This document shows positions 3,111 to 46,723 of a stretch of DNA of 64,000 nucleotides, in pieces (the first letter of the stretch is position 1; the number at the start of each line of letters is the position of its first letter). The position numbers and the translations under genes are program-made. A model generated the notes under the pieces. It had not been told where the DNA came from. It saw nothing but the letters and a program-made list of their open reading frames with translations, and did no database searches. Origin of the DNA: Bacteroidota bacterium (lineage in GTDB: Bacteria; Bacteroidota; Bacteroidia; UKL13-3); the NCBI GenBank assembly GCA_027484685.1, contig JAIXSO010000026.1, forward strand, positions 18,406-82,405, in the 5' to 3' direction.

Positions 3111-3210
3111 GAGTTTTTATTTAAATAAATTTTCAAAAACACTTTTTCGTACCTAGGCTGGGTTGTTTAAATCAATTTACAAGCTTATTATCGCGAGTTA
3201 AAATATTTTT

Positions 3211-3924: not shown

Positions 3925-3942
3925 TTTTAATTATTTCTACTT

Positions 3943-5355: not shown

Positions 5356-5361
5356 ATTAAT

Positions 5362-6786: not shown

Positions 6787-6789
6787 ATA

Positions 6790-29243: not shown

Positions 29244-30160
29244 TGTTAAAAAGTAAAAATTTAAAAGCCTACTTAGCATTTATTGCGGTAGCAATTTTTT
29301 GGGGTACCACATTCTTAGCCATTCGTATAGGCATTAATTCTGATGGTGTACATCATTTTCCTCCATTTTTATTGGCTGCATTTAGGCATTGTATTGCAGG
29401 GCTTTTAATTTGTTCCTACTTTATTCTTTACAAAAAACAGCCTTTACCTACACTTAAGCAATTTAAGTATTTTAGCATCAATGGTATATTGATGTTGGTA
29501 GGTGGTAATGGCATAATAAGTTGGGGAATGCAATACGTGGATAGTGGTTTGGCTGCTATTTTATGTGCACTTACGCCACTTTGGATAGTATTTATAAACC
29601 TGGCAATGGGTAGTAACGAAAAGGTTACCAAGGTAATGTGGGCAGGTTTTATAATTTGTTTACTAGCGCAATACCTTATTTTTTACGATAAAATAAATAT
29701 ACTCTCGGATAAAAATTACATTTATGGTTTAATAGCCATTATAGTTTCAAATATTTGTTGGGCATTTGGAACAGTTTTTTCTAAATCAAGCACTTCTCCT
29801 TTTCCTGCCTTGTATAATGCAGGCTTGCAAATGATTCCTGGAGGAGTTATTCTCTTAATTTTTTCAACTTTAACAGGCGATTGGAACAATTTTAACCCTA
29901 GTAGCAATTCTATTTGGGCTTTGGTTTATTTAATTTTATTTGGTTCTTTATTGGCTTACGGATGTTTTATGTACATAATAAAAGCGTTACCTGCAGCTTT
30001 GGTATCAACTTATGCATATATTAACACCATTGTGGCTGTCATATTAGGCGTGGTGTATTTAAAAGAAGAAATTAATGCCAAAGTAGTAGTGGCTATGTTG
30101 CTAACCATTCTTGGAGTTTACTTAGTTGGCAAAAAAGCTAAAGTAAAAGAAGCGAAATAG
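29243..30160 (+). CDS. EamA/DMT-family transporter
   Basis: 305 aa, 10 TM helices, two EamA repeats. Confidence 0.8.
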   Translation: MLKSKNLKAYLAFIAVAIFWGTTFLAIRIGINSDGVHHFPPFLLAAFRHCIAGLLICSYFILYKKQPLPTLKQFKYFSINGILMLVGGNGIISWGMQYVDSGLAAILCALTPLWIVFINLAMGSNEKVTKVMWAGFIICLLAQYLIFYDKINILSDKNYIYGLIAIIVSNICWAFGTVFSKSSTSPFPALYNAGLQMIPGGVILLIFSTLTGDWNNFNPSSNSIWALVYLILFGSLLAYGCFMYIIKALPAALVSTYAYINTIVAVILGVVYLKEEINAKVVVAMLLTILGVYLVGKKAKVKEAK

Positions 30161-30650: not shown

Positions 30651-33600
30651 TTGGTGGTAAATGATGAATTATTAAATTTGAATGTCAAAAATACAAATTC
30701 AATGATTAAATCAATTAAAAGTTTATCAAATCAATATTTCTTAGATTTAAAAAGTAAAAAAGTAAAAACAACCACATTCTTTAGAATATTTCTTTTGTTT
30801 GGTTTATTGTTTAGTTTACAATGTGTAATTGCACAACCCACCATTACTTCTTTTGCCCCATTAAGTGGAAAGGTTGGCGACACCATAACCATTTTAGGTA
30901 ATAGTTTTAATACTACTGCGGCTAACAATATCGTATTTTTTGGTGCAACTCGAGCAACAGTTTCGACAGCAACCTCAACAAGTTTAACGGTAACAGTACC
31001 AATAGGAGCGACCTTTGCACCTATTACTTTATTAAACACAGCCACGGGTTTAGCAACTTATAGTACTCAATTTTTCAACCCAGTATTTAGCCCTAGTAAA
31101 GGAAGTATAACATTGAATGATATTTCGCCAAAGGTTAACTTCACCGTAGGTTGGGCTCCAAAAACAGTATCCATTGGCGATATAGATGGGGATGGTAAAC
31201 CTGATTTGGCAATAGCTAATGAATATGACAATACTATTTCAGTATTACGCAATACTGGCAATAATGGTACTGTTAGTTTTGCACTAAAAGTGGATTTTGC
31301 AACAGGTTCAAATCCTAAAATTGTTGCCATTGGCGATATAAATGGTGACGGTAAACCTGATTTGGTAACAAATAATGTATCAAACAATTCTGTTTCGGTA
31401 TTGCGCAATACTAGCAGCAGTGGTACGATTAGTTTTGCAACAAAAGTAGATTTTACAACAGGTGGCAATCCTCAATCAGTTACCATAGGTGATTTAGATG
31501 GAGATGGTAAACCAGATTTGGCAATAGCTAGTTGGAGCAGCAATACCATTTCTGTATTACGCAATACTGGAAGTAGCGGCACCATTAGTTTTGCAACTAG
31601 GGTAAATTTCACTACAGGTTCAGGTCCTTATTCCTTAACCATTGGCGATATAGATGGTGATGGAAAACCTGATTTGGCAGTTGTTAATAGAGACAACAAT
31701 ACTATTTCTGTATTGCGTAACACTAGCAGCAGTGGTATAATGAACTTTGCCACAAAGGTAGATTTTACAACAGGTTCATCTCCTTATCAATTAGCAATAG
31801 GCGATATAGATGGGGATGGCAAGTTGGATTTAACAACTGCGAATATTGACAGCGATAGCGTTTCTGTATTGCGCAATACTAGCAGCAGCGGTACAGTTAG
31901 TTTTGCAACAAAAGTAGATTTTACAACAGGTACAAATTCAGAACCTTTTGCATTAGCGATAGGCGATATAGATGGAGATGGAAAACCTGATTTGGCAGTT
32001 GCTACCAGTGGATACAATACAATTGCTGTATTACGCAATATTAGTAGTAGTGGTACGGTTAGTTTTGGAGCAAAGGTAGATTTTGGAACAAGCCTATCTC
32101 CTTCTTTTATATCCATTGGCGATATAGATGGGGACAGTAAACCGGATTTGCTAATTACGAATAATGGAATTAATGGCACTGTTTCTGTATTGCGTAATAA
32201 CCCCCAACCTCCTCCTTCACCTCCCACCATCACCTCCTTTGCACCCTCTAGCTGTGCAATAGGTGCTACATTTTCAATAACAGGAACTGGTTTTAATACT
32301 ACACCTGCTAATAATGTGGTATTTTTTGGTGCTACACGTGCTACAGTAATTACAGCATCTGCTACTAGTTTAACTGTAATTGTGCCAATAGGTGCTAACT
32401 TTGCTCCTATTACAGTGTTAAACACGTTAACCGCTTTAGTTGCCTATAGTACTCAATTTTTTAAACCAATATTTAGCCCCACTAAAGGTAGTATTACCTC
32501 TACCGATTTAGCCGCAAAAGTTGATTTTGCAACAAATTCAGCAACTAAATCAGTAGCAGTTGGAGATATAGATGGAGATGGGAAAACTGATTTGGCAATT
32601 GTTAATGGAGGCAACAATACTGTTTCTGTATTACGAAACACTGGAAGCAGTGGTTTAGTTAATTTTGCAACAAAAGTAGATTTTACAACTGGTATAAATC
32701 CATGGTCAGTGGCTATTGGCGATATAGATGGAGATTCAAAACCTGATATGGTAATAGCTAATTATAACAGCAATACTGTTTCAATTCTACGCAATACTGC
32801 TAGTATCGGTGTACTTAGTTTTGCATTAAAAGTAGATTTTACATCAGGCATCCATCCTAAATCAGTAACTATTGGTGATATAGATGGAGATGGTAAACCA
32901 GATTTAGTAATAGCTAATGATAGCAGCAATAGTGTTTCTGTTTTGCGTAATACAGGCAGCAGTGGTTTCATTAATTTTGCACCAAAAGTAGATTTTGCAA
33001 CAGGCTCTTTTCCTAGTTCTGTAGCCATTGGCGATATAGATGGAGATGAAAAGCCTGATTTGGCAATACCTAATGATAGCAGTAATACTGTTTCTGTTTT
33101 GCGAAATATAAGTATCAGTGGTACCGTTAGTTTTGCAATTAAGGTAGATTTTGGAACCGGCACTCAGCCTACTTCTTTAGCTCTAGGCGATATAAATGGG
33201 GATGGGAGGCTTGATTTGGCAATAGCTAATAGAAGCAGCAATACTATATCTGTATTGCGTAATATAAGCACTAGTGGTGTGCTTAGTTTTGCACCAAAAG
33301 TAGATTTTGCAACTGGTTCAAGTCCTCGATTTGTAGCCATTGGCGATATGGATGGAGATGGTAAGTCGGATTTGGCAATAACAAATCAAGGGAGCAATAC
33401 TATTTCAATATTACGTAATACAAGCAATAATGCTACAGTTAGTTTTACAACAAAAGTAGATTTTATAACAAACACACAACCAAATACATTAGCCATTGGC
33501 GATATTGATGGAGATGGTAAACCTGATTTGGCGATAGAAAATGGAGGTAATACTGTTTCTTTATATCGTAATAACCCTCAAATATTTCCACCCAGCATTA

Positions 33601-36600
33601 CATCCTTTGCTCCTTTAAGCGGTACAGTAGGTTCTTCCGTAACTATTATAGGTTCTGGTTTTAACACTACACCTGCCAATAATATTATATTTTTTGGAGC
33701 AACACGTGCAACTGTAACTACCTCAACCACAAATAGTTTAACAGTAACAGTGCCAACAGGTGCCACTTTTGCACCAATAACATTAATAGATACAGGAGTT
33801 AATTTTACTGTACACAGTCCCCAGTTTTTCAATCCAATATTTAGCCCTAGTAAAGCTATTATTACCACTTCAGATATTGCGGCAAAATTAGATTTTTCGA
33901 CCGGTACAAGTCCTCGATCAATAGCCATTGGCGATATTGATGGAGATGGCAAATCTGATTTGGCAATCGCTAATACAAACAGTAAAACTGTTTCAATTTA
34001 TCGTAATACTGGCAAAATTGATACGGTAAATTTTGCAACAAAGGTAGATTTTACTACACTTTGGAGTCCTCTATCGGTTGCTATTGGAGACATAGATGGA
34101 GATGGAAAAGCTGATTTGGTAATTGCAAATGCAGGTAGTGATATTGTTTCTATATTTCGAAATACAAGTAGTAGTGGCATTATTAATTTTGCATCAAAGG
34201 TTGATTTTATTACAGGGTCGCTTCCTTATTCAGTAGTAATTGGAGATATAAATGGAGACGGTAAACCAGATTTGGCATTAACTAATTATAATAGCAATAC
34301 TGTTTCAGTGTTACGCAATACGGGCTTAAAAGGTTCAATAAGTTTTGCCACCAAAGTAGATTTTGCAACAGGATCAAATCCTTGTTCGGTAGCTATTGGA
34401 GATATAGATGGGGATGGTAAACCTGATTTGGCGATTGCTAACACAGGCAATATCTATACTGTTTCTGTATTACGTAATACAGGTAGTAATAATTCGGTTA
34501 ATTTTGCCACAAAGACAGATTTCACTACGGGTTCAAATTCAAAGTCCATAGAAATAGGCGATATAGATGGAGATGGAAAACCCGATTTGGCTATAGGCAG
34601 TAATTCTGTTTCTATTTTACGCAATACGAGTAGTAGTGGTTCGATTAGTTTTGCAACAAGAGTAGATTTTGCATCAGTATCAACTCCTTATTCATTAAAA
34701 ATTGGTGATATAAATGGAGATGGCAAACCTGATTTGGCAATAATTAATCAAAGCAGCAATAAACTTTCTATATTACGTAATACAAGTATCAGTGGTACAG
34801 TAGATTTTGCAACAAAGGTAGATTTTGCCTCAGGTACAAATCCTCTTTCAATAGCCATTGGCGATATTGATGGGGATGGCAAATCTGATTTGGCGATAGC
34901 AAACGAAAACAATAATTCTGTCTCTATTTTAAGAAATTATCCTCAACCACCGCCTCCTACCATTAATTCATTCACTCCAACCAGCGCAGTTGTAGGTGCT
35001 TCAATTTCCATAACTGGTGTAGGTTTTAACACGGTACCTACAAAAAATATAGTGTTTTTTGGTGCAACTAAAGCAATTGTAACAGCAGCAACTGACACCA
35101 GTTTAATGGTATTGGTACCTATAGGTGCCTCTTTTGCACCAATAACTATATTAAATACTGCTAACACTTTATCAGCTTATAGTACACAATTTTTCAACCC
35201 AATATATAGTCCTAGTAAAGGAAGTATAACCACAAATGATATAACAACAAAGCAAGATTTTACAACTGGGCCGCAATCCAGAGCTGTAGCTATTGGAGAT
35301 TTGGATGGTGATGGCAAACCCGATTTGGCTGTAGTTAATAATGTTGGTGCTACTGTTTCCATATTAAGAAATACAGGAAGCATTGGTTCGGTTAGTTTTG
35401 CAACCAAGGTTGATTTTTCTACGGGTACAGATCCTGAGTCAATATCTATTGGAGATATAAACGGAGATGGTAAACCTGATTTAGTTGTGACAAATTTTGG
35501 AAGCAGCACTGTTTCAGTTTTTCGCAATATAAGCATGAATGGAGCAATTAGTTTTGCTACAAAAATCGATTTTGCAACAGGTACAAATCCCAGTTCAGTG
35601 GCCATTGGCGATATTGATAAAGATGGCAAACCAGATTTGATAGTAACTAATTATAATAATGGCTTTAACTCTATTTCTGTCTTTCGTAATACCAGTAACA
35701 GTGGTACAATTAGCTTTGATTTAAAGGTAGATTTTGAAACAGGAGGTAATCCGGCCTCAGTAGCTATTGGCGATATTGATGGAGATAATAAACCCGATTT
35801 AGCAATAGCCAATCAAATGAGCAATACTGTTTCAATACTACGGAATACAAGTATTTATGGAACAGTTAGTTTTGCAACAAAGTTAGATATTACAATGATT
35901 TCTGAGCCTTTTTCAATTGCCATTGCTGACTTAGATGGCGATGGAAAATCTGATTTAGCAATAGCAAATGTTAGCAGTATTGGAAAATCAGTTTCTGTCT
36001 TAAGGAATACCAGTAGCATTGGTTCAGTGAGTTTTGCATCAAGGGTAAATTTTTCGGCAAATGGAGATCCTTATTCAGTATCCGCTGGCGATCTAGATGG
36101 AGATGGAAAGCCTGATTTGGCAATCGCTAGTTTTAGCAGTTCAGTTTCAGTATTGCGAAATACAAGTGTGAGCGGTACTATTAATTTTGCTACTAGGGTT
36201 CCTTTTACAACAGGCTCATTTCCACGATCAGTAGCATTGGGTGATATAGATTGTGACGGCAAACTTGATTTGGTGGCATCTAACAGTAACAGCCAAACTG
36301 TTTCCGTATTGCGTAATAACCCACAATTTCCTCCCACAATTTCCACAATAGGTAATTTAACACCATTTATTTCTTGTACTGGCAGTGCTTCAGCACAGCA
36401 AACATTTACAGTAACTGGAACTAATTTAATAGCAAATTTAATGGTAATACCACCAATAGGCTTTGAGATAAGTACTACTTCTGGTTCAGGTTTTGGAAAC
36501 AGTGTTAGTTTATCTCCTTCCTCAGGCACAATAAACGCAATCTTATATATACGTTTAACCAATTCGGTAACAGGTTCGCCAAGTGGAAATATAGTTTGTG

Positions 36601-37787
36601 CCTCAACAATTGCTGATACACAAAATGTAGCTGTATATGGTTTAGTAAAAGCAACATCAACTAGTACTACAAATATTTCAGTCTGCTCAAGTACATTACC
36701 TTTTACTTGGAATAGTAGAGCATATAATTCAAGTAGAACAGATACTGTTTATTTAACCAATTTCGTTGGTTGTGATAGTATTACCATTTTAAAATTAACA
36801 GTTAAACCTACAAGTTCATCAACTTCTAATATAAGCATTTGCCCTAGTGCATTGCCTTATACTTGGAATGGAAGAACATATAATTCCAATAGCATAGATA
36901 CGGTTTATTTAACCAATTCCGTGGGTTGCGATAGTATTACTATTTTAAAATTAACTGTAAAACCTACAAGTTCATCAACTTCTAATATAAGCATTTGTCC
37001 TTCAGCACTGCCTTATACTTGGAATGGAAGAACATATAATTCCAATAGCATAGATACTGTTTATTTAACTAATTCAGTAGGTTGCGATAGTATTACCATT
37101 TTAAAACTAACAATAAAACCAATTAGTACTTCAACAAATAACATAAGTATTTGTCCGAGCGCATTGCCTTATACATGGAATGGATTAATCTTTAACGAAT
37201 CAGGAACGCAGACCAAAACAGGTTTAACTAATTCGGTTGGATGTGATAGTTCAGCAACTTTAAATTTATCGGTAAATCCAATTCCAGCAACTTCCAATAT
37301 TACAGGCTTTACCAATGTAGCAAGGTTAGATACAGCTACTTATTCGGTAATAGGAACAAGTGGTTCAGTTTTTAATTGGGCAACTACAAAAGGATTGGTT
37401 CAAACAGGCGCGGGTACAAATCAAATAAAAGTAAAATGGAATACAGCCGGAATGGATACTTTAAAAGTTACTGAAACTTCTAATCAAGGTTGTGTTGGTT
37501 CACAAAAAACACTATTGGTTAATATTGGTCCTGCTACCGGAATGAATGAAATCAATGCAAGTAATAATATACTGGTTTATCCAAATCCATTTAACGAAAC
37601 CATATTTATTTCATTGCTTAATAATTCAGGTTTGAACAAAGCTATTTTATATGATTTATTAGGTAAAGAGGTTTTAACTACCCATAAAAGTGAAATAGAT
37701 GTGAAAGAGTTAAAATCTGGCGTTTATTTGATAATGGTGATTGATAATAATGGCAATAGTTATAGCCAAAAATTGATTAAAAATTAG
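30651..37787 (+). CDS. Giant T9SS-secreted protein with 4 x [IPT/TIG domain + 7 FG-GAP repeats] plus C-terminal Cys-containing repeats and a type-A CTD
   Basis: 2378 aa with signal peptide. Twenty-eight 'IGD(I/L)(D/N)GDGKPDL' FG-GAP calcium-binding motifs in four sets of seven. Each set is preceded by 'P(T/S)ITSFAP..G....I.G.GFNTT' IPT-like domains. Four ~57-aa 'ISICPSALPYTWNG...VGCDSITILKLTVKP' repeats. C-terminal 'VYPNPF...GVYLIMVIDNNG' T9SS CTD. Antisense ORFs inside the gene are repeat artefacts. Confidence 0.85.
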   Translation: MVVNDELLNLNVKNTNSMIKSIKSLSNQYFLDLKSKKVKTTTFFRIFLLFGLLFSLQCVIAQPTITSFAPLSGKVGDTITILGNSFNTTAANNIVFFGATRATVSTATSTSLTVTVPIGATFAPITLLNTATGLATYSTQFFNPVFSPSKGSITLNDISPKVNFTVGWAPKTVSIGDIDGDGKPDLAIANEYDNTISVLRNTGNNGTVSFALKVDFATGSNPKIVAIGDINGDGKPDLVTNNVSNNSVSVLRNTSSSGTISFATKVDFTTGGNPQSVTIGDLDGDGKPDLAIASWSSNTISVLRNTGSSGTISFATRVNFTTGSGPYSLTIGDIDGDGKPDLAVVNRDNNTISVLRNTSSSGIMNFATKVDFTTGSSPYQLAIGDIDGDGKLDLTTANIDSDSVSVLRNTSSSGTVSFATKVDFTTGTNSEPFALAIGDIDGDGKPDLAVATSGYNTIAVLRNISSSGTVSFGAKVDFGTSLSPSFISIGDIDGDSKPDLLITNNGINGTVSVLRNNPQPPPSPPTITSFAPSSCAIGATFSITGTGFNTTPANNVVFFGATRATVITASATSLTVIVPIGANFAPITVLNTLTALVAYSTQFFKPIFSPTKGSITSTDLAAKVDFATNSATKSVAVGDIDGDGKTDLAIVNGGNNTVSVLRNTGSSGLVNFATKVDFTTGINPWSVAIGDIDGDSKPDMVIANYNSNTVSILRNTASIGVLSFALKVDFTSGIHPKSVTIGDIDGDGKPDLVIANDSSNSVSVLRNTGSSGFINFAPKVDFATGSFPSSVAIGDIDGDEKPDLAIPNDSSNTVSVLRNISISGTVSFAIKVDFGTGTQPTSLALGDINGDGRLDLAIANRSSNTISVLRNISTSGVLSFAPKVDFATGSSPRFVAIGDMDGDGKSDLAITNQGSNTISILRNTSNNATVSFTTKVDFITNTQPNTLAIGDIDGDGKPDLAIENGGNTVSLYRNNPQIFPPSITSFAPLSGTVGSSVTIIGSGFNTTPANNIIFFGATRATVTTSTTNSLTVTVPTGATFAPITLIDTGVNFTVHSPQFFNPIFSPSKAIITTSDIAAKLDFSTGTSPRSIAIGDIDGDGKSDLAIANTNSKTVSIYRNTGKIDTVNFATKVDFTTLWSPLSVAIGDIDGDGKADLVIANAGSDIVSIFRNTSSSGIINFASKVDFITGSLPYSVVIGDINGDGKPDLALTNYNSNTVSVLRNTGLKGSISFATKVDFATGSNPCSVAIGDIDGDGKPDLAIANTGNIYTVSVLRNTGSNNSVNFATKTDFTTGSNSKSIEIGDIDGDGKPDLAIGSNSVSILRNTSSSGSISFATRVDFASVSTPYSLKIGDINGDGKPDLAIINQSSNKLSILRNTSISGTVDFATKVDFASGTNPLSIAIGDIDGDGKSDLAIANENNNSVSILRNYPQPPPPTINSFTPTSAVVGASISITGVGFNTVPTKNIVFFGATKAIVTAATDTSLMVLVPIGASFAPITILNTANTLSAYSTQFFNPIYSPSKGSITTNDITTKQDFTTGPQSRAVAIGDLDGDGKPDLAVVNNVGATVSILRNTGSIGSVSFATKVDFSTGTDPESISIGDINGDGKPDLVVTNFGSSTVSVFRNISMNGAISFATKIDFATGTNPSSVAIGDIDKDGKPDLIVTNYNNGFNSISVFRNTSNSGTISFDLKVDFETGGNPASVAIGDIDGDNKPDLAIANQMSNTVSILRNTSIYGTVSFATKLDITMISEPFSIAIADLDGDGKSDLAIANVSSIGKSVSVLRNTSSIGSVSFASRVNFSANGDPYSVSAGDLDGDGKPDLAIASFSSSVSVLRNTSVSGTINFATRVPFTTGSFPRSVALGDIDCDGKLDLVASNSNSQTVSVLRNNPQFPPTISTIGNLTPFISCTGSASAQQTFTVTGTNLIANLMVIPPIGFEISTTSGSGFGNSVSLSPSSGTINAILYIRLTNSVTGSPSGNIVCASTIADTQNVAVYGLVKATSTSTTNISVCSSTLPFTWNSRAYNSSRTDTVYLTNFVGCDSITILKLTVKPTSSSTSNISICPSALPYTWNGRTYNSNSIDTVYLTNSVGCDSITILKLTVKPTSSSTSNISICPSALPYTWNGRTYNSNSIDTVYLTNSVGCDSITILKLTIKPISTSTNNISICPSALPYTWNGLIFNESGTQTKTGLTNSVGCDSSATLNLSVNPIPATSNITGFTNVARLDTATYSVIGTSGSVFNWATTKGLVQTGAGTNQIKVKWNTAGMDTLKVTETSNQGCVGSQKTLLVNIGPATGMNEINASNNILVYPNPFNETIFISLLNNSGLNKAILYDLLGKEVLTTHKSEIDVKELKSGVYLIMVIDNNGNSYSQKLIKN
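36640..37260 (+). repeat. Intragenic ~171-bp tandem repeats (4 copies; the two central copies almost identical at nucleotide level)
   Basis: Near-identical DNA blocks at ~36781-36950 and ~36951-37120 encode the Cys-containing 57-aa modules. Confidence 0.75.
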
Positions 37788-37873
37788 GTAATTATGGTGT
37801 AGTTATTTTATGTTCATGGTTGGTGTCCTAGCAATCATTCCAAATCGATTGGTGAGGACACTAGCCGAGGACT

Positions 37874-37969
37874 AAAGAAGAAATTAATGCCAAAGTTGTA
37901 GTAGCTATGCTTTTAACCATTGCCGGAGTTTGGCTAGTTGGGCGTAAAGGAAAAATAGCCAAGCAATAA
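37874..37969 (+). pseudogene. Orphan diverged copy of the 3' end of the EamA transporter gene
   Basis: Translates to 'KEEINAKVVVAMLLTIAGVWLVGRKGKIAKQ*' versus EamA C-terminus 'KEEINAKVVVAMLLTILGVYLVGKKAKVKEAK*'. About 80% nucleotide identity over the first ~70 nt. An upstream in-frame TAG and no start codon. Confidence 0.7.
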
Positions 37970-38021
37970 TTTTACAAAACATTTTTAGTTTAGTTTTGCT
38001 TTAATTTATAAACTTACTACT

Positions 38022-39356
38022 ATGAAAAAAATTTATATTTTGTTCTGTTTTATTTTATTGAACGTTAACGTATTTTCTCAAAATGGATTATATGGTATTG
38101 TAAGAAAAAATTATTATTCAATTGTTAGAAATCCTACAGATACTAATCAAACATTCGAACAATTTGATTCTGCAACAATTCGATTAGGGTTTTTAAATCC
38201 GTCATCAGGACAAGTTAGTAATATAGGCAGCAATTTATACAATCAAACAATTAACCTAACTGGAGCTGCTTTAAACCCTTACGACAGCACGTTTATTTAT
38301 ATTGGAGCAGATAAAATTAATACAATTGATTTAAATACGGGTGTAATTATTAATAGTATTCCTTTGTCAAATCCTATACAAAGTAGTTACTTTGATAACT
38401 TTAGGTTTAATAATTCGGATAGTACCATGTATGGTTTAGCGCGAAGAAGTTATTTGGATCCAATTACTAACACCTTAGTTGGTGAAGTTTACATGGCTAA
38501 AGCAAATACCAATACAGGCGTAATAACGCAAATTTCTCCAAGTTCTGTTGGAAATGGATATGCATTATTGGGCAGTTCAATTGATCCTTATCAAATGGTT
38601 TATTATTATTCAGATGGAACACATATTATTGGATTAGATATTTATACTGGCTTGGTTTACAGTAAGGTGGTAATTAACAATGTGTTTGGAACAACGTTTG
38701 GAAACTTTACTTACAATTGTAATGATAATAAAATATATGGGCTAATTGGAAAGAACTATTTTAGAACTGTAACTGATTCACTTGGTACTTATGAAATACT
38801 GGATTCAAATACACAAACTTTGGGCACTATCAATCCTAATTCTGGAATTGTAACTCAAGTTTCGGCCAATACATTAAGTAAAGTTGGATATACAATAAAT
38901 GGAGGTTCTACAATTGACCCTAATACCAACACTTATTATTTTAATATAGGTACCAAAGTAATTGGTGTATCAATTTTTGATGGAACTATAGTTAGCGATC
39001 CTAGTTTTATTTTTTCTGATGGACAGTATTTTGATTTAATAAGAAACTTACAAAGCTGCTATTCGGCTTATTCATTGAGAAAAAAACCAACAAATGTTGC
39101 CTCTGTTAATTCTCAAAAAAATAATATACAAGTTTATCCTAATCCGTTTAAAAATACGGTAAGTGTAAATGGAGGTAATCAACAAATAGGAACAGTGGAG
39201 ATTTACTCTATATCAGGTAGTTTAATAAAGAAACAAAACATAACTGAAAATGGCCAAGAAATTGAACTTTCAGAATTAAAAAGTGGAATTTATTTTTTAA
39301 AAATAAATACTCCAGAAAACGAAAGTACCTTTATAAAAATTTGCAAATCGGAGTAA
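38022..39356 (+). CDS. T9SS-secreted protein with type-A C-terminal sorting domain
   Basis: Signal peptide. C-terminal 'VYPNPFKNTVSV...GIYFLKINT' CTD. Confidence 0.7.
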   Translation: MKKIYILFCFILLNVNVFSQNGLYGIVRKNYYSIVRNPTDTNQTFEQFDSATIRLGFLNPSSGQVSNIGSNLYNQTINLTGAALNPYDSTFIYIGADKINTIDLNTGVIINSIPLSNPIQSSYFDNFRFNNSDSTMYGLARRSYLDPITNTLVGEVYMAKANTNTGVITQISPSSVGNGYALLGSSIDPYQMVYYYSDGTHIIGLDIYTGLVYSKVVINNVFGTTFGNFTYNCNDNKIYGLIGKNYFRTVTDSLGTYEILDSNTQTLGTINPNSGIVTQVSANTLSKVGYTINGGSTIDPNTNTYYFNIGTKVIGVSIFDGTIVSDPSFIFSDGQYFDLIRNLQSCYSAYSLRKKPTNVASVNSQKNNIQVYPNPFKNTVSVNGGNQQIGTVEIYSISGSLIKKQNITENGQEIELSELKSGIYFLKINTPENESTFIKICKSE

Positions 39357-39388
39357 AACTGATTAATCGTAATAAAACAATCACATTC

Positions 39389-39422
39389 AAATCCCGAAGC
39401 GAAAGCAGAGGGATTTTTTTGT
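39389..39422 (+). terminator. Rho-independent terminator
   Basis: 'aaatccc'...'gggattt' stem followed by a T7 run. Confidence 0.6.
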
Positions 39423-39473
39423 TAATAATTAATTTTAACAAATTAATTCAAACTATTCAATAAAATAATAAGT

Positions 39474-42400
39474 TTGAAATTGTTACAAACAAGCATAATG
39501 AATAAAGAAACCCATATTCAAAATTATTTTAAAACGGTTAAAGCTGCTTCAAATGAACTTTCTAAAAAGGAAGCTTTTAAAGATTTATTGAATAGAATAT
39601 ATGCTAATGAGGAGTCTTATACAAAACTGATTGATAGAATGACCTTAGGTTCTGAAAAAGCCATTTTTAATATTCCAAAAGGTGATAAAAATAAAACAGG
39701 AAGGGCTGATACCAAATACAATCAAGTAATTATTGAATTTGAAAAAGACTTACGTAAAACTGGAGAACATGCCAAAGAACAATTAGCTGAATACTTTTTT
39801 GGAACTTATAAAAGTGGAGGAGATTATAACCTAACCTTAATTGCTACCGATTGCATAACTTGGAAAATATTTGTACCAAGTTTTGAAACCTTTGAAAACA
39901 TAAGCTCAATAAAGCTACGCGAAGTAAAATTGGAAGAGTTAAAAGGTGGAACTTTTGTTTTAAGCGAAAATAATGGCAATGATTTCTTTTATTTTATCGA
40001 CCGTTATTTGTTTAGAACGGAAGCTCAAAAAGCTACTTTAGAATATATTGAACAAGATTTTGGTTTACAATCTGCTGTATTCATCAACTCATTTAAACAA
40101 CTAAAAGAACATTTTAATGATGTAAAAAAATATGGTGAAGTGCAAGTAAGCTTTGAACAATGGCGTAAGTTTTTGTTTATAGCTTATGGTATAGAAGAAT
40201 TACCAGAAAATATATTTTTAGTACATACTTATTTAAGTGTTTTTGCTAAGATGCTTGCCTATACTGTTCTTACTGATGATGATTTTATTGACGACCAAGA
40301 GCTAGAGCAAATTATTAATGGAAGTATTTTTGAAACATTAAATGTAAAAAATTTAACTGACAATGACTTTTTTCATTGGGTAAAATCTGAACGAAGTTTT
40401 AGAGAACTAAAATCTGCTTTTAGGCAAATAGCCCTGGAGTTAAGTAATTATAGTTTTAAAAATGTAGATGAAGATGTTTTGAAAGGGGTGTATCAAAACT
40501 TAATTGATATTGATACTCGTCACGCTTTGGGTGAATACTACACACCCGATTGGCTTTGTGAAATGGTGGTAAGAGAAATGCCAATAAAAACAGATAGTAA
40601 AACATTAGACCCTAGTTGTGGAAGTGGTTCGTTTTTAAGAACAGTTATAGATAAACTTAAAAATGAAAATAAAACAATAACAGCAAATGAATTGGCAAAT
40701 AATGTTTATGGCATAGATATTCATCCATTAAGTGTGCAAATAGCTAAAACTACCTTACTTGTTGCTATTGGAAAAGATTTAATTCGAAAATCGAAAAAAC
40801 CAGTTAGTTTAAACGTATTTTTATCAAATACCATATTGATTCCTGATGGTGTAAAAAACCTATTTGGTGGTGATTTTACCTTAACTATTGATAGAGAAAA
40901 ATATAAACTAAATACCCAAGTTTTAGAAGATGATAAACTATTCGATGAAGCATTAAATGTAGCAGATGCTTTGGCAGAGTTAACCTTGGGTAAAAAGGCT
41001 GTTGACCAAACTACTTTTATTAATAATTTAAAGAAAAGTTATCCTTATGCACCTATTCCTGTATTAAACGATAGCTTGTATAAAATATATTTAGGTTTGA
41101 AAAGAACCAAAGAAAGCGGTAGAGATAGTATTTGGAAGTTTATACTTCAAAATATGTACAAGCCATATTTTTTAAAAGAAAGATTCGATTTTATAGTGGG
41201 TAATCCGCCTTGGTTTACTTGGAGTAGCGTTAAAAAAGAGGATTACCAAGATGAACTTAAAACACTTGCAGAAAGCTACTAAGTAATGCCTGAACGCAAA
41301 GCCAATTTTCCACACTTGGAAATCGCAGCCATTTTTTTAGCGCATTGCAGCAATTATTTTTTAAAAGAAAATGGTCAATTAGCATTTGTATTACCAAGAA
41401 GCTTTATGAGTGCTGACCAACATGAAAATACACGAAATGGCAAAGCCAAAGGATTTACCTTAACACAAATTTGGGATTTGGATGCTGTTACTAATTTATT
41501 TAGGGTGCCTAGTTGTGTTTTATTTTCCGAAAAGAAATTAAAAACTTCAGTAAGCCAATACCACAAAGGTATAAATGGAATAAGCTTTAAGGGGCGAATA
41601 AAAAAACATAATTGTAGTATAAAGGAAGTAGAAGATGCTGGAGTATTAACTCAAACCGAAAATACATTTTACTATACTACATTGGGAAAAAGCAGTGCTT
41701 TTAGTGTTTCTAAGCAATCAAAAAAAGGAAGTCAAAATAAAACGAGTTATTACAAAACTTCGTTTAAACAGGGAGCTACATTAGTGCCTCGAAATTTTTA
41801 TTTTGTAGAGCTAACACAAGAAGAGCCCGAAGATTGGGACGATAGGTTGATAAATATAAAAACCAGTTCTGAAAGCATGAAACAAGCCAAAAAACCTTGG
41901 AATGAAATAGACATGCACGGACAAATAGATAGCCAATATTTTTTTAGAACAGCTATTTCTAAAAATGTTTTGCCTTTTGTTTTGTATAATCCCGAATTGG
42001 TAATACTTCCTATAAAAATAAACCAAGAAAATAAACAAATAACCATGCAAACGCATGAGGAAATTTTGAAGGACGGTTACTATATCACAGCGCAATGGTT
42101 TAAGAATGTAGAAAATGTTTGGAATATTCTTAAAACTGAAAAAAATGAAAAAATTTCAAGCGGAAATTATTTGAATTGGCAAAACAAATTAACCGATCAA
42201 GATTTAAATAAAAAGTACATGGTACTTTATACTGCAAGTGCAAAAAATGCAAATAGCTGTGTGGTAAAACGGGAAGATTTAAAATTGGAATTTATAGTAG
42301 AAAGTACAACTTATGTATTTTTTTCAAACAATAAAAATGAAGCTTATTATGTTTCTGCTTTACTAAATTCAAGTGTTCCAAATGAATTAATGAAAGACTT

Positions 42401-42671
42401 TCAAGCAAAGGGATTATTTGGAGAACGCCATGTACATAAAAAAATATTAGACATTCCTTTTCCACAATTTAACGAAATGAATCAAGCTCATATTGATTTG
42501 GCTTTACTATCAGAAAGCTGCCATACCAAAGCTGCCAAATGGATGAGAGAAAACAATATTCCTGATAATTTAGACCCAATAAAACTAGGCAAAGTTAGGG
42601 TTCAAATAAAAGCTTATTTGAATGAGGAGATGAAAAAGATAGATAAGTTGGTGAAGGGGGTGATAAAATGA
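39474..42671 (+). pseudogene. MmeI-like single-chain (type IIG/IIL-like) N6-adenine DNA methyltransferase/RM gene interrupted by one in-frame TAA (41280-41282)
   Basis: ORFs 39474-41282 and 41286-42671 share a frame. Motif I 'LDPSCGSGSFL', 'GEYYTP', motif IV 'GNPPWF' lie before the stop. Conserved post-catalytic 'LAFVLP' plus ~350 aa TRD-sized tail lie after it. N-terminal 'D...IIEFEKDL' segment is reminiscent of a PD-(D/E)xK nuclease head. Confidence 0.7.
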
Positions 42672-42678
42672 TAGGTTA

Positions 42679-43830
42679 ATGTTTAAAGTTTTACATTGGA
42701 AAAAAATTATTTTTAATATTATTCGAGTTGTCATCATGAAAAAAGAATCATTGTTTTATAACCCAACATTTAGTGTTTTTATCCAAGCTTTTATTGTAGT
42801 TTGTTTAGGTTTATGCACTATTCCAATAATTGGTTTTGTATTTTCTTCAATATTTAAAATAGCTCCAAATAATTTAGGAGATACAATAGGAGGAACAATG
42901 GGGCCATTCGTTGCTTTATTTGCTGCCTTGTTAACTTTCTTGGCTTTTTATGTTCAATATCAAGCAAATCAGTCGCAGAGGAACGACATAAAAAGAGAAA
43001 GATTTGAAACACAATATTATGAAATAATTAAATTGCACAGAGAAAATGTTTCGGAAATAAAAATAAGAAGTGATAATGGTTCTATTGAAAGTAGATATGC
43101 ATTTGTAACAATGTTCAATGAATTTAAATTTATTTATCGTTTTTGTTATGACACGTATTTTAGAATGGTGGAAAGAGGAAAAATTGAGATATTAGATAAT
43201 GAAGAGTTGATTGTTAAAGAAAAAATTCTCAATATGTCTTACATTCTATTTTTTATAGGTGTAGGTCCAAATTCATTTGATTTAAGTTTTGCTTCTGCTT
43301 CTGAAAAATCTAAAAAATTACACAAAGAATGTTATGAAGAATTAGAAAAATTGAAGTTAAAACATGTTGATAATAACTATTTTTCAAAATTTAATTTTGA
43401 AAAATTAGGAATAGAAATGGTACTTCAATTAAAATACAAACCTTTTGGAGGGCATATGTCGAGATTAGGACATTACTACAGGAATTTATATATGGCAATA
43501 AAATATGTAGATTCACAAGACTTTTTAAGTGAAAATGAAAAATATAGTTACATTAAAATAATTAGGGCTCAATTGTCAAATCATGAACAAGCCCTAATAT
43601 ACTACAACGTAATTTCTGGTTTTGGTTGGCGTTGGATAGAAAAAGAGAAAAACTATTTAGTAAAATATCGACTCATTCATAATGTACCTACAACATTATT
43701 AGAATTTGCAATTAAACCAAGAGACCATAAAATAATTGGTGAACAAATAAAAGAGTGGGAAGAAGTCAAGAATAAAAATCACAAAGAAGACTTAAATGGA
43801 TGGACACCTTTTTTTGAATGGGAAGAATAA
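42679..43830 (+). CDS. Two-TM membrane-anchored protein, possible abortive-infection-like protein
   Basis: Two N-terminal TM helices then a ~290-aa cytoplasmic domain. Architecture resembles the 'putative phage abortive infection protein' family. Likely true start at 42736 (MKKESL). Confidence 0.4.
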   Translation: MFKVLHWKKIIFNIIRVVIMKKESLFYNPTFSVFIQAFIVVCLGLCTIPIIGFVFSSIFKIAPNNLGDTIGGTMGPFVALFAALLTFLAFYVQYQANQSQRNDIKRERFETQYYEIIKLHRENVSEIKIRSDNGSIESRYAFVTMFNEFKFIYRFCYDTYFRMVERGKIEILDNEELIVKEKILNMSYILFFIGVGPNSFDLSFASASEKSKKLHKECYEELEKLKLKHVDNNYFSKFNFEKLGIEMVLQLKYKPFGGHMSRLGHYYRNLYMAIKYVDSQDFLSENEKYSYIKIIRAQLSNHEQALIYYNVISGFGWRWIEKEKNYLVKYRLIHNVPTTLLEFAIKPRDHKIIGEQIKEWEEVKNKNHKEDLNGWTPFFEWEE

Positions 43831-43842
43831 AAAAATTATAAA

Positions 43843-44802
43843 ATGGAAAAGAAATATTCAGTCTTTGTAAGTTCAACTTATGAAGATTTAAAAGAACATA
43901 GAGAAAAAGTAATATATAGTTTAGTTGAAAATAATTATTTTCCTGTTGCTATGGAATTTTTCCAAGCTTCAAGCGATAATAAATGGGAGCGAATAAAAAA
44001 GTTAATTAAAGATTGTGATTATTTTATTTTGATAGCTGGCGGTAGGTATGGAGAAATTCAATACGATGATAAAAGTTTTATTGAGTTGGAGTATGATTTT
44101 GCATTAGAAAATAATATTCCTGTAAATGTTTTTGTTGTAAATTCAATTGACGAACTTAGAAGTAAAGATGTTGATCATGGAGAAAAAAGAGAAAGTTTAA
44201 ATAGGTTTATCAGGAAAATTCAGGATGATAAAATATCAAAATCATACAAAAATGTTGATGATTTAAAAGCTGTAGTAGTTAATTCATTAAATCGATTAAT
44301 TATAGATAGTCCAAGAGTTGGTTGGATAAGGGGTACTACCTATAAAATTAAAGAAACTTTAAATGAGAGAATTGATTTCGAAATAGACATTACTGAAATT
44401 ACCAAATGGATAAATACTGAAAATATTACAATAGAATATAACCCAATTGGTAAAGATTATTCCATATTTTCTTTTGAAAATTTTTCTTCCGAATCTCTTG
44501 CTTTAAGTGTAAAAGAAGTTTGGGATATACTTCGATTAAAATGTTTGCAAGAACTTCCTGAAACGGAAATAGGAAAGAGTTTAAATTTGCTCATCGACAG
44601 AAAAATAAAGGTTAGTATAAAAGATAAATTTTCATTTAATGACACCAATATTTTTAAAGATTCATTTGATAATGTAATAAGAGTTTTTGTTGATAGAGGT
44701 TTAATTGAACCTTCTTTAAAAAGTAAATTAAGTATTAAAAATCAAAAAGATTGCTATTGGAAGTTATCTTCATTGGGAGAAGTTATCAATAGTGGAAAGT
44801 AA
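43843..44802 (+). CDS. DUF4062 domain protein with uncharacterised C-terminal domain
   Basis: N-terminus 'YSVFVSSTYEDLKEHREKV...FPVAMEFF...DCDYFILIAGGRYGEI...ELEYDFA' matches the DUF4062 consensus. Confidence 0.7.
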   Translation: MEKKYSVFVSSTYEDLKEHREKVIYSLVENNYFPVAMEFFQASSDNKWERIKKLIKDCDYFILIAGGRYGEIQYDDKSFIELEYDFALENNIPVNVFVVNSIDELRSKDVDHGEKRESLNRFIRKIQDDKISKSYKNVDDLKAVVVNSLNRLIIDSPRVGWIRGTTYKIKETLNERIDFEIDITEITKWINTENITIEYNPIGKDYSIFSFENFSSESLALSVKEVWDILRLKCLQELPETEIGKSLNLLIDRKIKVSIKDKFSFNDTNIFKDSFDNVIRVFVDRGLIEPSLKSKLSIKNQKDCYWKLSSLGEVINSGK

Positions 44803-44825
44803 AAATAACTTTAATAATTATTTTT

Positions 44826-45923
44826 ATGGATAAACTCATTCCAACATTTACTGATATCAGTAAATGGAACATAAACGTATATACTAATACGGGAGGTACA
44901 CGTAGCAAGCAAATTGCGGTGCATCCTGAAACTGATAAGGAATATTTTTTTAAAGGTTCTAAAGTAATTAAAGATACCAATGAAATACGTTATCCTACTG
45001 AATTTTGGTCTGAAATAGTTTCGTCAAAAATAGGTCAATATTTAGGTTTCGATATGCTTGATTATAATATTGGATTTAACCAAAATAATCAATTGCAAAA
45101 AATTGGTTGTCTTTCGAAATCAATGATTGAAAACTCTGAAAATAGATTAACAGAAGGAAAAATGTATTTGATGGGTTTTAATTCAAATTACAATCCAAAT
45201 TTGAAGGAACATCAGAGTTTATATACTTTTCAATTCATAAGTGAATCTCTTATAAGTTTTGATTTTGAACTATTTATCAATAAGGTAATAGAAGTTATAA
45301 TCTTTGATAGTATAATTGGCAATTCTGATAGGCATCAAGAAAATTGGGGAATAATTACTAACTATAACCACACCATAAGGGGTATAGATGCACATTTAGA
45401 AACTGAAGTTAAGAATTTTTTTACAAAACAAAAATTTCGTGTAGCTAAATGGTATTTAAAGCTAATTTCTAAAGCACAGATTAATATGAAAAAAATTCCA
45501 AAATCAATTTTATCTCAGCAATCATCATTTGCTCCAAATTTATTTGCTCCAATATATGATAGCGGTTGTTGCTTAGGGAGAGAAATTGAAGAGGAAAGAT
45601 TAAATAAAATGTTGCTAGATAATAATATGTTAGAAGCTTACGTTAGAAAAGGTGAATCAGAAATTCATTGGGATGGGTTTGAGAAAAAAAAGAAGCATTT
45701 TGAGTTAATTAATTTGGTTAAAGAAATACATAAATACCAAGTTTGTGAAGTTATTGATAGGGTAGTGAATAAATTCAAGAATGAAGATATACAAACAATA
45801 ATATTTAATATTGACAGAAATATTCCTCCTCATTTAAGCCAATATAAATTAGCAGATAATAGAAAAGAGTTAATGAATAAAATTATAAATTTGCGCATTG
45901 AAAAGTTGAAAGAGATAAGATGA
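44826..45923 (+). CDS. HipA/HipT-like serine/threonine kinase (toxin-type kinase core lacking the HipA N-subdomain)
   Basis: Catalytic-loop-like 'IIGNSDRHQENWGII' and 'FAPIYDSGC' correspond to HipA '(I)GNTD.H.KN(F/W)' and 'AP.YD' motifs. 365 aa. Confidence 0.6.
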   Translation: MDKLIPTFTDISKWNINVYTNTGGTRSKQIAVHPETDKEYFFKGSKVIKDTNEIRYPTEFWSEIVSSKIGQYLGFDMLDYNIGFNQNNQLQKIGCLSKSMIENSENRLTEGKMYLMGFNSNYNPNLKEHQSLYTFQFISESLISFDFELFINKVIEVIIFDSIIGNSDRHQENWGIITNYNHTIRGIDAHLETEVKNFFTKQKFRVAKWYLKLISKAQINMKKIPKSILSQQSSFAPNLFAPIYDSGCCLGREIEEERLNKMLLDNNMLEAYVRKGESEIHWDGFEKKKKHFELINLVKEIHKYQVCEVIDRVVNKFKNEDIQTIIFNIDRNIPPHLSQYKLADNRKELMNKIINLRIEKLKEIR

Positions 45924-46573
45924 AAGAGATAGGAAACATACATTTGTGTTGGCGTCAAGCAAAAGGATCCAATAGGATTCCCATAGGTACTATTAAACAT
46001 AGTGTTACAGGTGGAGTACGTTTCTCTTATAATCAGAATGAAGTAGCAAAAGCAAGAAAATTAGGTTTTCAGCATTACGAAGGATTTCCAGATATAACAA
46101 AGGTGTATGATGAAAATGTGCTAGAAATATTTGGACAGAGGTTAATTAAAAGTGAACGTTCTGACACAAGTGCCTTTTATGAATTTTGGGGAATAGATGC
46201 CCAATATAAAGATAACGATTTCTATATGCTTGCTTATACTCAAGGACTTTTACCAACCGATAACTATGAGTTTTTGGCAGACTTTCACCCAATGCCTAAT
46301 CTATCGTTTGTTTCTGAAATTACAGGTTTAACTGAAGCTAAGTTAGAAGCTGATTTGTTAAAAGTTGGAGATAAATTGACTTATAAACGAGAGCCAAATA
46401 ATGTCTTTGATAATAAAGCAATAGGTCTATACTTAGGAGAATTGTATTTAGGCCATGTTAAATTAATTCATAGTAGAGTGTTTTATAAAACAAATACCTT
46501 ATTAAAAGTTAGTGTTCATAATATTGAAAAGAATGGTTTCTTGAAAAGGGTATTTATTAAGATAAATAGTTAG
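45920..46573 (+). CDS. HIRAN-domain protein
   Basis: C-terminal 'LKVGDKLTYKREPNNVFDNKAIGLYL..LGHV' fits the HIRAN consensus (REP.NPYD.NAI.V....LG(Y/H)V). Start overlaps the kinase stop (ATGA). Confidence 0.65.
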   Translation: MKEIGNIHLCWRQAKGSNRIPIGTIKHSVTGGVRFSYNQNEVAKARKLGFQHYEGFPDITKVYDENVLEIFGQRLIKSERSDTSAFYEFWGIDAQYKDNDFYMLAYTQGLLPTDNYEFLADFHPMPNLSFVSEITGLTEAKLEADLLKVGDKLTYKREPNNVFDNKAIGLYLGELYLGHVKLIHSRVFYKTNTLLKVSVHNIEKNGFLKRVFIKINS

Positions 46574-46723
46574 AATTAAATAATTACCAAACTTTCTTAA
46601 ATCTCTATAAACGTTAAAAAATTGCGCTTTTTACTTTTGAAAGCTCAATTAATCATTGAAACTGAATCAAACTTTTTTTTGGCTAAGCTATCACCTAAGT
46701 TTGTGTGTAATATGGTTGTTTGT

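Follow-up and report, generated by a model that had tools for sequence, protein, structure and literature searches.

A premature ochre codon divides a putative single-chain Type IIG-like restriction-modification gene in a Bacteroidota defence island

MmeI, a Type IIL enzyme of 919 aa, carries a VD70-X9-E80MK82 nuclease motif together with the methyltransferase (MTase) motifs X (G312AHYTS), I (FFDPACGCGNFL) and IV (GNPPF) (PMC2582602). The Type IIG enzymes DrdV (7LO5) and BpuSI (3S1S) combine an N-terminal extra domain, a gamma-class N6-adenine MTase and a C-terminal TRD in one chain, and the BREX PglX/BrxX proteins (8C45, 9EWZ) are also large single-chain gamma-MTase and TRD proteins located in defence islands. 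Phase variation conventionally operates through a mutable simple-sequence repeat. A Type IIG restriction-modification (RM) enzyme of Campylobacter jejuni NCTC11168 is described as phase-variable (PMC4889913).

The window, the whole 64,000-nucleotide stretch of DNA analysed here, comes from the low-GC (32%) chromosome of a Bacteroidota host and contains a gene of this general type within a variable defence island. Positions 41277-41288 read TAC TAA GTA ATG, and the TAA at 41280-41282 divides a same-frame ORF pair, 39498-41282 and 41286-42671 (Table 1). The upstream ORF is also listed from an alternative TTG start at 39474 (39474..41282), but the ATG at 39498 aligns with the N-termini of the homologues and is likely the true start. 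A first-pass annotation of the sequence had placed the stop correctly, with ORFs 39474..41282 and 41286..42671 in one frame, and had read it as a single in-frame TAA dividing a single-chain MTase/TRD gene between motif IV and the remaining MTase and TRD, as we also find. It located the LAFVLP segment after the stop, where it lies within LAFVLPRSF at 41379-41405, and the NPPW motif upstream of it; the distance between the tryptophan and the stop is 22 codons, not the 20 given there.

Table 1. Features of the divided gene and its downstream neighbourhood (window coordinates).
Feature	Position	Strand	Detail
N-terminal fragment ORF	39498..41282	+	594 codons + TAA
N-terminal fragment contents	39498..41282	+	candidate nuclease domain, helical connector, first half of gamma-class N6-adenine MTase (motifs X, I, IV)
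Candidate nuclease motif	39705..39746	+	A-D71-X8-E80-F-E82
MTase motif X	40530..40553	+	GEYYTPDW, residue 345
MTase motif I	40605..40634	+	LDPSCGSGSF, residue 370
MTase motif IV, catalytic	41199..41213	+	GNPPW, residue 568
Premature ochre TAA	41280..41282	+	codon 595
ATG (Met597), 3 nt past stop	41286..41288	+	pre-existing internal Met of subclade (VMPERK)
C-terminal fragment ORF	41286..42671	+	461 codons; remaining MTase core (HLEIAAIF, LAFVLPRSF) + TRD
Hypervariable TRD sub-block	42074..42473	+	nt divergence 20-38% from L005, L006, L001
Downstream defence-island context as a whole	42679..46573	+	
AbiC-like gene	42679-43830	+	
DUF4062/TIR-like gene	43843-44802	+	
PDC-M03A/B candidate pair	44826-45923 and 45920-46573	+	

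Both halves fall collinearly on a single 1,100-position PADLOC profile, PDLC03630 (REase_MTase_IIG), the first covering positions 56-636 (4.6e-59) and the second 652-1088 (4.2e-14). Taken together they match intact proteins of 1,053-1,064 aa over the full length, with up to 94% identity overall and 98-99% in the N-terminal half. This arrangement is not the chance juxtaposition of two genes. Apart from the TAA, the 1,057 codons contain neither a further stop nor a frameshift, and the C-terminal ORF itself is fully intact. Of the remaining same-frame adjacent ORF pairs scanned in the 64-kb window, some are plainly separate genes (L11 and L1) and the others showed nothing to suggest a split gene; the window thus shows no sign of poor assembly.

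The encoded domain order is an N-terminal candidate nuclease, a helical connector, a gamma-class N6-adenine MTase and a C-terminal TRD. Pfam matches to the N-terminal fragment were N6_Mtase (3.5e-12) and Eco57I (1.4e-9), and MTase motifs X, I and IV occur in that order and are invariant in 120 homologues. The acidic residues D71, E80 and E82 are likewise invariant in the 120; position 83 is N in 115 of them, and K (K83) occurs only in the subclade of the window protein. The N-terminal domain was modelled with a pLDDT of 80.6 as alternating helices and strands, a pattern that would fit a PD-(D/E)XK-type core. Modelled alone, this domain had no Foldseek match at E <= 0.001, its weak top matches being bunyavirus cap-snatching endonucleases (0.03-0.3) and DrdV (0.25), and no Pfam match even at E <= 10. 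An AF2 model of a 94%-identical intact orthologue (pLDDT 86, pTM 0.80) gave Foldseek matches to the MTase and TRD proteins CamA, M.BseCI, MmeI and DrdV, and locates the break in the loop that follows helix 582-594 and precedes helices 602-622 and strand 623-634. Searches of PDB sequences, run with one sequence and also as a profile, found nothing beyond generic matches to the MTase cores of Type I M-subunits and BrxX, and a search of NCBIfam returned only sub-threshold MTase-core matches to MAD2 and BREX PglX.

Intact homologues are single ORFs with the TRD fused C-terminally, and they have neither a conserved neighbouring gene nor a separate S or M gene. The family comprises at least 1,933 matches from different phyla, and its TRD block varies combinatorially. 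On these sequence features the gene appears to encode a stand-alone, single-chain Type IIG-like RM protein of ~1,057 aa that belongs to an abundant uncharacterised family (PADLOC PDLC03630), with the nuclease as a candidate. We favour "RM" over "MTase only" on account of the PADLOC/REBASE-derived name of the model, the invariant acidic triad and the defence-island setting.

Comparison with relatives points to the origin of the stop. Each of the four closest loci has a sense codon there, CAA (Gln) in L005, L006 and L001 and CTA in L002, and L003 has GAG; the lesion is therefore a single C>T transition at 41280. Across the family this column is variable, with E in 30, N in 29, D in 24, Q in 11 and H in 7 of the 120 homologues. 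These 120, the best-scoring ones, are all single chains of 1,050-1,101 aa at 99-100% query coverage, so that both the closest relatives (91-81% nucleotide identity) and the distant ones are fused. The first-pass annotation had looked to orthologous loci for an intact ORF of ~1065 aa; such loci exist, with ORFs of ~1,057 aa. It had also considered that homologues might be two-gene systems ending at the same point. Homologues are not of this kind, and C-terminal fragments from other loci vary in length between 340 and 805 aa. Ten C-terminal fragments of 460-479 aa had raised the idea of a conserved two-gene split, which we rejected: fragment lengths run continuously from 340 to 805 aa, short contigs are the source of many of them, and in L015, the one case looked at, the cause is a frameshift in a different codon. 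L015 and L016 carry an independent frameshift, a 4-nt duplication 8 codons upstream of the equivalent site. Disrupted copies are common in the family, some of them on long contigs, and their break positions are scattered; a naturally split, two-gene MTase arrangement is conserved in no relative compared.

The gene bears the marks of purifying selection. In the N-terminal half dN/dS is 0.016-0.03, and changes private to the window copy upstream of the stop number 22 synonymous to 1 non-synonymous. Downstream of it, with the TRD block left out, the count is 21 to 7, all seven being conservative, and the intact comparators show the same pattern (11:4 in L005 and 21:5 in L001). The C-terminal dN/dS is raised, at 0.10-0.17. 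Relaxed selection after the stop was rejected as the cause, as the excess is confined to a block of ~130 codons that varies between intact relatives too and in which the states of the window copy are common among intact members. Of the 38 C-terminal residues private to the window copy, 24 recur often among intact members that are distant, and only 4 have no precedent there. Outside the TRD sub-block the gene differs from L005, L006 and L001 by at most 12-19% at the nucleotide level, and over the first ~1.1 kb it differs from L005 by 0-4%. The sub-block at 42074-42473 is an alternative TRD allele that is also seen in intact relatives, and not a product of decay. Since the rest of the gene has the substitution pattern of purifying selection, the stop is either very recent or an artefact, due to the consensus or to mixed strains, in a genome that was probably assembled from a metagenome. 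To call the gene "decaying", as had been done, is an overstatement, for apart from one codon no decay is seen.

The neighbours of the gene are of mixed kinds. Those upstream encode T9SS-secreted proteins, and those downstream are defence-type genes (AbiC-like, DUF4062 and PDC-M03A/B), which does not bear out an earlier description of the neighbourhood as toxin-like. Window positions 43840-46586 are 99% identical in L005, while the slot at 42679-43830 differs between loci. Among the homologues the neighbours vary, and the RM-type gene stands alone, in defence islands or in islands flanked by integrases.

We propose that a recent nonsense mutation, Gln595 (CAA) to ochre TAA, probably inactivated a one-chain RM-type gene. 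A single C>T transition would have created the stop, and translation would end after beta4/NPPW and helix 582-594. The resulting 594-aa product would lack MTase strands beta5-beta7 and the whole TRD, and would therefore be expected neither to methylate nor to find its target. The candidate nuclease and the MTase share one TRD in one polypeptide, so restriction and modification would be lost together; such a joint loss could be tolerated by the cell because no unprotected restriction would be left. The outcome would be an RM gene that has only just been inactivated, at the very first stage of becoming a pseudogene. Among the three options offered by the first-pass annotation, nonsense inactivation is thus the best supported and a switchable stop is disfavoured, with a sequencing or consensus error holding an intermediate and minor place. 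That error would mean that the T at 41280 arose in sequencing or polishing, or that the consensus of a metagenome-assembled genome took up the allele of a minor strain, and that the true gene is intact with CAA. We consider it unlikely, but several observations speak for it. The gene is flawless apart from one base and looks selected, and an erroneous base call or consensus would equally leave the gene free of secondary lesions. The source has the look of a metagenome-assembled genome, only one NCBI contig, of 105,745 bp and with unnamed proteins, carries the halves found in the window, and the TAA allele occurs in no second assembly, which leaves the T at 41280 a single-assembly observation. 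Exact look-ups of the two halves and of neighbouring proteins were mostly negative. Two Logan contigs of 100% identity were found, from SRR16126889 (window 37766-41239) and SRR16126887 (window 44227-46448), and neither spans the stop; the former, the sole independent contig over the gene, falls short of the TAA by 41 nt. This break in the SRR16126889 contig, at 41239/41240, falls where position 41240 is polymorphic among relatives, which suggests co-existing strains. A scan of JGI metagenomes with a 26-nt pattern allowing either allele gave 0 matches. Against an error, mistaken substitutions in a consensus assembly are rare and stop-creating ones rarer still, C>T (here CAA>TAA) outnumbers all other types of real mutation in AT-rich genomes, and disrupted copies of the family are common elsewhere on long contigs.

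The readings in which the stop is real and the gene remains useful fare worse. In a functional split, translation would terminate at the TAA and re-initiate at the ATG 3 nt on, and parts of 594 and 461 aa would reassemble into an active enzyme. DNA methyltransferases that are naturally two-subunit or have been split experimentally offer a parallel, the break falls between elements of secondary structure, in a surface loop of variable sequence, the C-terminal ORF is whole, and the TAA-GTA-ATG sequence supplies the start codon, Met597 being the sole conceivable re-initiation codon. However, Met597, whose column holds K in 114 of 120 family members, is ancestral in the subclade, being present in the intact L005, L006, L001 and L002, and is therefore not an adaptation to the split. 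The arrangement occurs in no relative compared, fragments elsewhere break at scattered points, the split state has left no time for selection, and the cut passes through the Rossmann-type MTase core between beta4 and beta5. We regard this reading as very improbable, and likewise a gene kept alive either as a freshly born split Type IIG enzyme reassembling across the beta4/beta5 loop or through an activity of the 594-aa N-terminal fragment itself. A regulated stop, in which programmed readthrough, suppression or phase variation toggles the RM system, is scarcely credible. Phase-variable Type IIG enzymes do exist, that of C. jejuni NCTC11168 being one (PMC4889913), and the variability of the residue where the stop falls means that the protein would probably accept whatever amino acid was inserted there. 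Yet neither a homopolymer nor a short tandem repeat lies at the stop or close to it (41268-41300), the local RNA fold is ordinary (z = -1.17; 23 of 200 shuffled sequences fold equally well), none of the five tRNAs in the window was identified as a suppressor, and a point substitution does not revert at useful rates. TAA is moreover the commonest genuine stop here, terminating 27 of 40 long ORFs in the window, which also rules out an alternative genetic code.

The two ORFs are best annotated together, as a single disrupted Type IIG-like RM gene and not as two genes. If the base is real, the strain is expected to have neither the matching m6A motif nor the restriction barrier, and the locus illustrates how a one-polypeptide RM system can be lost in one harmless step. 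The main value of the finding lies in annotation and in what it says about the history of the defence island. Independently of the stop, a large uncharacterised family with a combinatorial TRD block may be of interest to enzyme hunters.

Several described systems resemble the window protein to different degrees. The C. jejuni NCTC11168 enzyme (PMC4889913) is likewise of Type IIG, with a frame reportedly interrupted in some cells and activity thereby abolished. The interruption in the window, in contrast, is a plain base substitution with no repeat, and is therefore not a switch. The BREX PglX/BrxX proteins are among the best full-length fold matches (E ~4e-15) and also give weak sequence-profile matches; the NCBIfam BREX scores of 33-35 bits are far under the 400-900-bit cut-offs, and no brx or pgl genes adjoin the gene in the window or in relatives (BrxA/B/C, PglZ and BrxL tested). 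MmeI shares the domain order, the gamma-class MTase and the fused TRD, and its chain J (5HR4) is matched in fold at E = 6e-13 with a TM-score of 0.54 normalised to the target. The numbering of the acidic motif is near-equal (D71...E80-x-E82 against D70...E80-x-K82), and a TRD with modular alternative residue states is a trait like that of the MmeI family. The window protein is, however, ~140 aa longer, has an ~80-aa insertion between motifs I and IV, and belongs to a family with D71-X8-E80-F-E82 in place of D70-X9-E80-X-K82, the catalytic Lys not being conserved. Pfam MmeI_Mtase was the sole MmeI domain to score, at 27.6 bits against a cut-off of 27.0; MmeI_N, MmeI_hel, MmeI_TRD and MmeI_C gave no matches, those to the N- and C-terminal parts being absent even at E <= 10, and the family profile did not retrieve MmeI (5HR4) from PDB sequences at E <= 1. 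The label "MmeI-like" given earlier thus holds for architecture and fold class but not for family membership. With Type IIG enzymes the identity of the window protein to solved structures is 10-15% and no characterised member was identified; its family has an N-terminal D-X8-E-X-E triad without the canonical Lys, and the window copy is truncated by the stop. The arrangement of domains is nevertheless that of DrdV and BpuSI, and Foldseek assigned a probability of 1.0 to the matches with DrdV, BpuSI, MmeI and LlaBIII.

Read in frame, 39498-42671 encodes a continuous protein-like sequence that is interrupted once, by a stop at codon 595; neither a second stop nor a frameshift was found in this interval by translation or by comparison with relatives. 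GNPPW precedes the stop by 22 codons, with HLEIAAIF and LAFVLPRSF a short way 3' of it; the first-pass annotation had the coordinates and description right, apart from placing NPPW 20 codons away. It had also read the locus as a single-chain restriction-modification (RM) type gene split by a nonsense codon, and this part of its interpretation is borne out. The parts before and after the stop (N-half and C-half) match the PADLOC profile PDLC03630 (REase_MTase_IIG, 1,100 positions) collinearly, at profile 56-636 (E = 4.6e-59) and 652-1088 (E = 4.2e-14), respectively. At E <= 1e-5 the fused sequence retrieved 1,933 proteins; all of the best 120 are 1,050-1,101 aa long, with query coverage of 99-100%. 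The orthologous ORF is uninterrupted, as the annotation had proposed to check, in all four nearest loci, L005 (a Bacteroidetes MAG), L006, L001, and L002; identity is 99% and 98% over the N-half for L005 and L006, and 94% and 86% overall for L001 and L002. The codon at the stop position is CAA in L005, L006, and L001, CTA in L002, and GAG in the related locus L003. Since the homologous codon is CAA in relatives, the lesion comes down to one C>T transition, at position 41280, that turns Gln595 into an ochre codon. The two ORFs are parts of one gene, not two.

The stop-position column is variable across the 120-sequence family alignment (E, N, D, Q, H). An AlphaFold model built for the intact orthologue with 94% identity (pLDDT 86, pTM 0.80) places the position in a loop after helix 582-594, flanked by strand 564-569 and NPPW, then by helices 602-622 and strand 623-634.

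Features of the interrupted gene and its surroundings (window coordinates unless a locus is named)
Feature	Coordinates	Strand	Remark
N-half ORF	39474..41282	+	same frame as 41286..42671
C-half ORF	41286..42671	+	same frame as 39474..41282
TAC TAA GTA ATG	41277-41288	+	window sequence
AbiC-like gene	42679-43830		slot 3' of RM gene
Protein with DpnII/MboI-like REase domain	L005 5111-5947		same slot
HEPN (RiboL-PSP)/LprI protein	L006 3580-4578		same slot; ORF of equal size (332 aa) in L001
DUF4062/TIR-like gene	43843-44802		precedes PDC-M03A/B pair
PDC-M03A (2.8e-58) and PDC-M03B (1.5e-23)	44826-46573		two overlapping genes; PADLOC candidate defence pair
Three-gene block	43840-46586		99% identical in L005
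~7.7-kb segment	30108-37873		missing from L005
2,378-aa T9SS-secreted protein, ORF	30651-37787		25 FG-GAP repeats, TIG domains, TcdB_toxin_midN-like stretch

Comparison with close relatives gives dN/dS values of 0.016-0.03 for the N-half and of 0.10-0.17 for the C-half. The excess is restricted to alignment positions ~850-1020 (window 42074-42473), where intact relatives also differ among themselves and where the window carries the states of distant intact homologues (e.g. P0003, P0004, and P0029), among them NYLNWQNKLT and GLFGERHVHKK; the combination of "NWQ" and "H..K" is present in 26 of 123 sequences. This 400-nt block of the target recognition domain (TRD) is 20-38% diverged from the L005 allele, which is near-identical elsewhere; the difference points to replacement by recombination. 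TRD allele replacement is normal for such enzymes; here it probably changed specificity and is unrelated to the stop. Of 38 window-private C-half residues, 24 are found in at least 10% of 118 more distant members and four are never seen. Outside the TRD block, window-private substitutions comprise 22 synonymous and 1 non-synonymous before the stop, and 21 and 7 (all conservative) after it, a pattern indistinguishable from that of intact comparators (L005 11:4, L001 21:5) and apparently far from the non-synonymous excess expected of neutral sequence. Given this selected-type pattern and the lack of a second lesion, essentially all divergence predates the stop. The stop is either very young or not real, the product of an ordinary, very recent pseudogenisation or of a consensus artefact.

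The window's proteins trace to only one NCBI contig in the protein collection, 105,745 bp long and with no names given to its proteins, suggesting that its source is a metagenome-assembled genome. Logan assemblies of SRR16126889 and SRR16126887 match 37766-41239 and 44227-46448 at 100% identity, and the SRR16126889 contig (L013) stops at 41239/41240, 41 nt short of the stop. Position 41240 is a third-codon position (GAG or GAA), at which L005 shares the window's G, and L001 and L006 have A; the contig end there suggests a strain-level branch in the sample's assembly graph. Exact look-ups and a metagenome scan found the TAA allele in no other assembly. A T at 41280 arising from the consensus or from a minor strain is nevertheless rather unlikely, and a recent real mutation likely, because consensus assemblies seldom contain substitution errors that produce a stop, and C>T is the most frequent type of genuine mutation in AT-rich genomes.

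The annotation had raised a switchable stop, for which the locus offers no support: the break has no homopolymer or short tandem repeat, the stop shows no unusual RNA structure (local fold z = -1.17), all five of the window's tRNAs are ordinary with no suppressor among them, and TAA is a normal stop that ends 27 of the 40 long ORFs. The other same-frame neighbouring ORF pairs scanned in the window showed no signs of a split gene; where domains were found (e.g. L11 and L1), the partners are distinct genes. Re-initiation at ATG 41286 with complementation between fragments is conceivable since the break would lie in a surface loop, and yet we consider a functional split enzyme highly improbable. 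That ATG encodes Met597, which is ancestral to the subclade and present in its intact genes as VMPERK; across the family, 114 of 120 members have K at this position. The enzyme would have to work by accident, with its methyltransferase (MTase) core divided between beta4 and beta5, an arrangement that is seen in no relative.

Under a recent real mutation, an intact enzyme that would recognise its site via the C-terminal TRD, methylate adenine, and probably cleave via the N-terminal domain would be reduced to a 594-aa product. Without beta5-beta7 of its MTase fold or any of the TRD, this product should show neither activity; losing the two together is a harmless way for a single-chain RM system to disappear.

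Elsewhere, disrupted copies of the PDLC03630-type family are common: C-terminal fragments range from 340 to 805 aa, and several lie on contigs of 0.1-6 Mb. An unrelated family member (L015; ENA ERZ25038564 NODE_13, 4940-5060) has overlapping ORFs of 597 and 476 aa; in it and in L016, in two assemblies, a 4-nt CAGA tandem duplication independently shifts the frame, 8 codons before the position that corresponds to the window's stop. About ten matches of ~785-805 aa are without the first ~250 residues. In one, L017 (ENA ERZ25039533 contig_27541, 2938-7418), the family frame is still open upstream of the called 805-aa ORF start, a 227-aa ORF lies further upstream, and an adjacent beta-lactamase gene is likewise in two pieces (230 + 131 aa), suggestive of long-read assembly indel errors rather than a shorter natural isoform.

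No conserved partner gene was found among the loci compared; neighbours are housekeeping genes in L003, a HEPN gene in L006, a DpnII-like gene in L005, and an AbiC-like gene in the window. Alphaproteobacteria (L007 and L008, from Asticcacaulis and a Pseudomonadota MAG) carry intact ~1,056-aa copies at ~50% identity (48-51%), beside tyrosine integrases or an AAA_13 ATPase gene. Together these fit a self-contained, horizontally mobile one-gene RM system and indicate transfer across phyla. The slot directly downstream of the gene, filled differently in each close relative and with flanks that are 90-99% identical, looks like a hotspot for defence-gene swapping. The ~7.7-kb segment is an insertion/deletion polymorphism adjoining the RM gene: in the otherwise collinear L005, window 29748-30108 abuts 37873. 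The L006 contig (CAZGVO010000008.1) is titled "uncultured Bifidobacterium sp.", yet its 12-kb stretch has 31% GC and its copy is 98% identical to the Bacteroidota-type gene; this MAG contig was probably mis-binned or mislabelled.

Motifs X (GEYYTP), I (DPSCGSGSF), and IV (NPPW) occur in gamma-class order, and Pfam N6_Mtase and Eco57I are both matched. The full-length model matches the gamma-MTase plus TRD structural class with probability 1.0 at only 10-15% identity: CamA and M.BseCI (E ~1e-15), PglX/BrxX (4e-15), DrdV (1.6e-13), MmeI (5HR4, 6e-13), and LlaBIII and BpuSI (6e-12), which makes MmeI one of several equally distant relatives. The label "MmeI-like" thus holds for architecture and not for family membership, since none of the domains MmeI_N, hel, TRD, and C of Pfam was found, MmeI_Mtase was matched at threshold only, and the family profile did not retrieve MmeI from PDB sequences. 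The layouts are parallel: MmeI has VD70-X9-E80MK82, motif X at residue 312, motif I at 359, and NPPF at 480 (PMC2582602), and the window protein AD71-X8-E80-F-E82, motif X at 345, motif I at 370, and NPPW at 568. The acidic triad D71/E80/E82 is invariant in 120 homologues, whereas the catalytic Lys is not conserved in this family. The isolated N-terminal domain model (pLDDT 80.6) has no significant structural neighbour, with weak matches to cap-snatching endonucleases and the DrdV N-terminus; for these reasons an endonuclease function is only plausible. In alignment A1 of the homologues, the family TRD shows discrete alternative states that recombine freely among intact members (...NWQNKLT... 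versus ...FQRG.TEQ..., and G.RHVHKK versus G.RDVHK[KT]). These could allow specificity prediction once one family member is characterised, and they resemble the specificity-determining positions exploited in the MmeI family.
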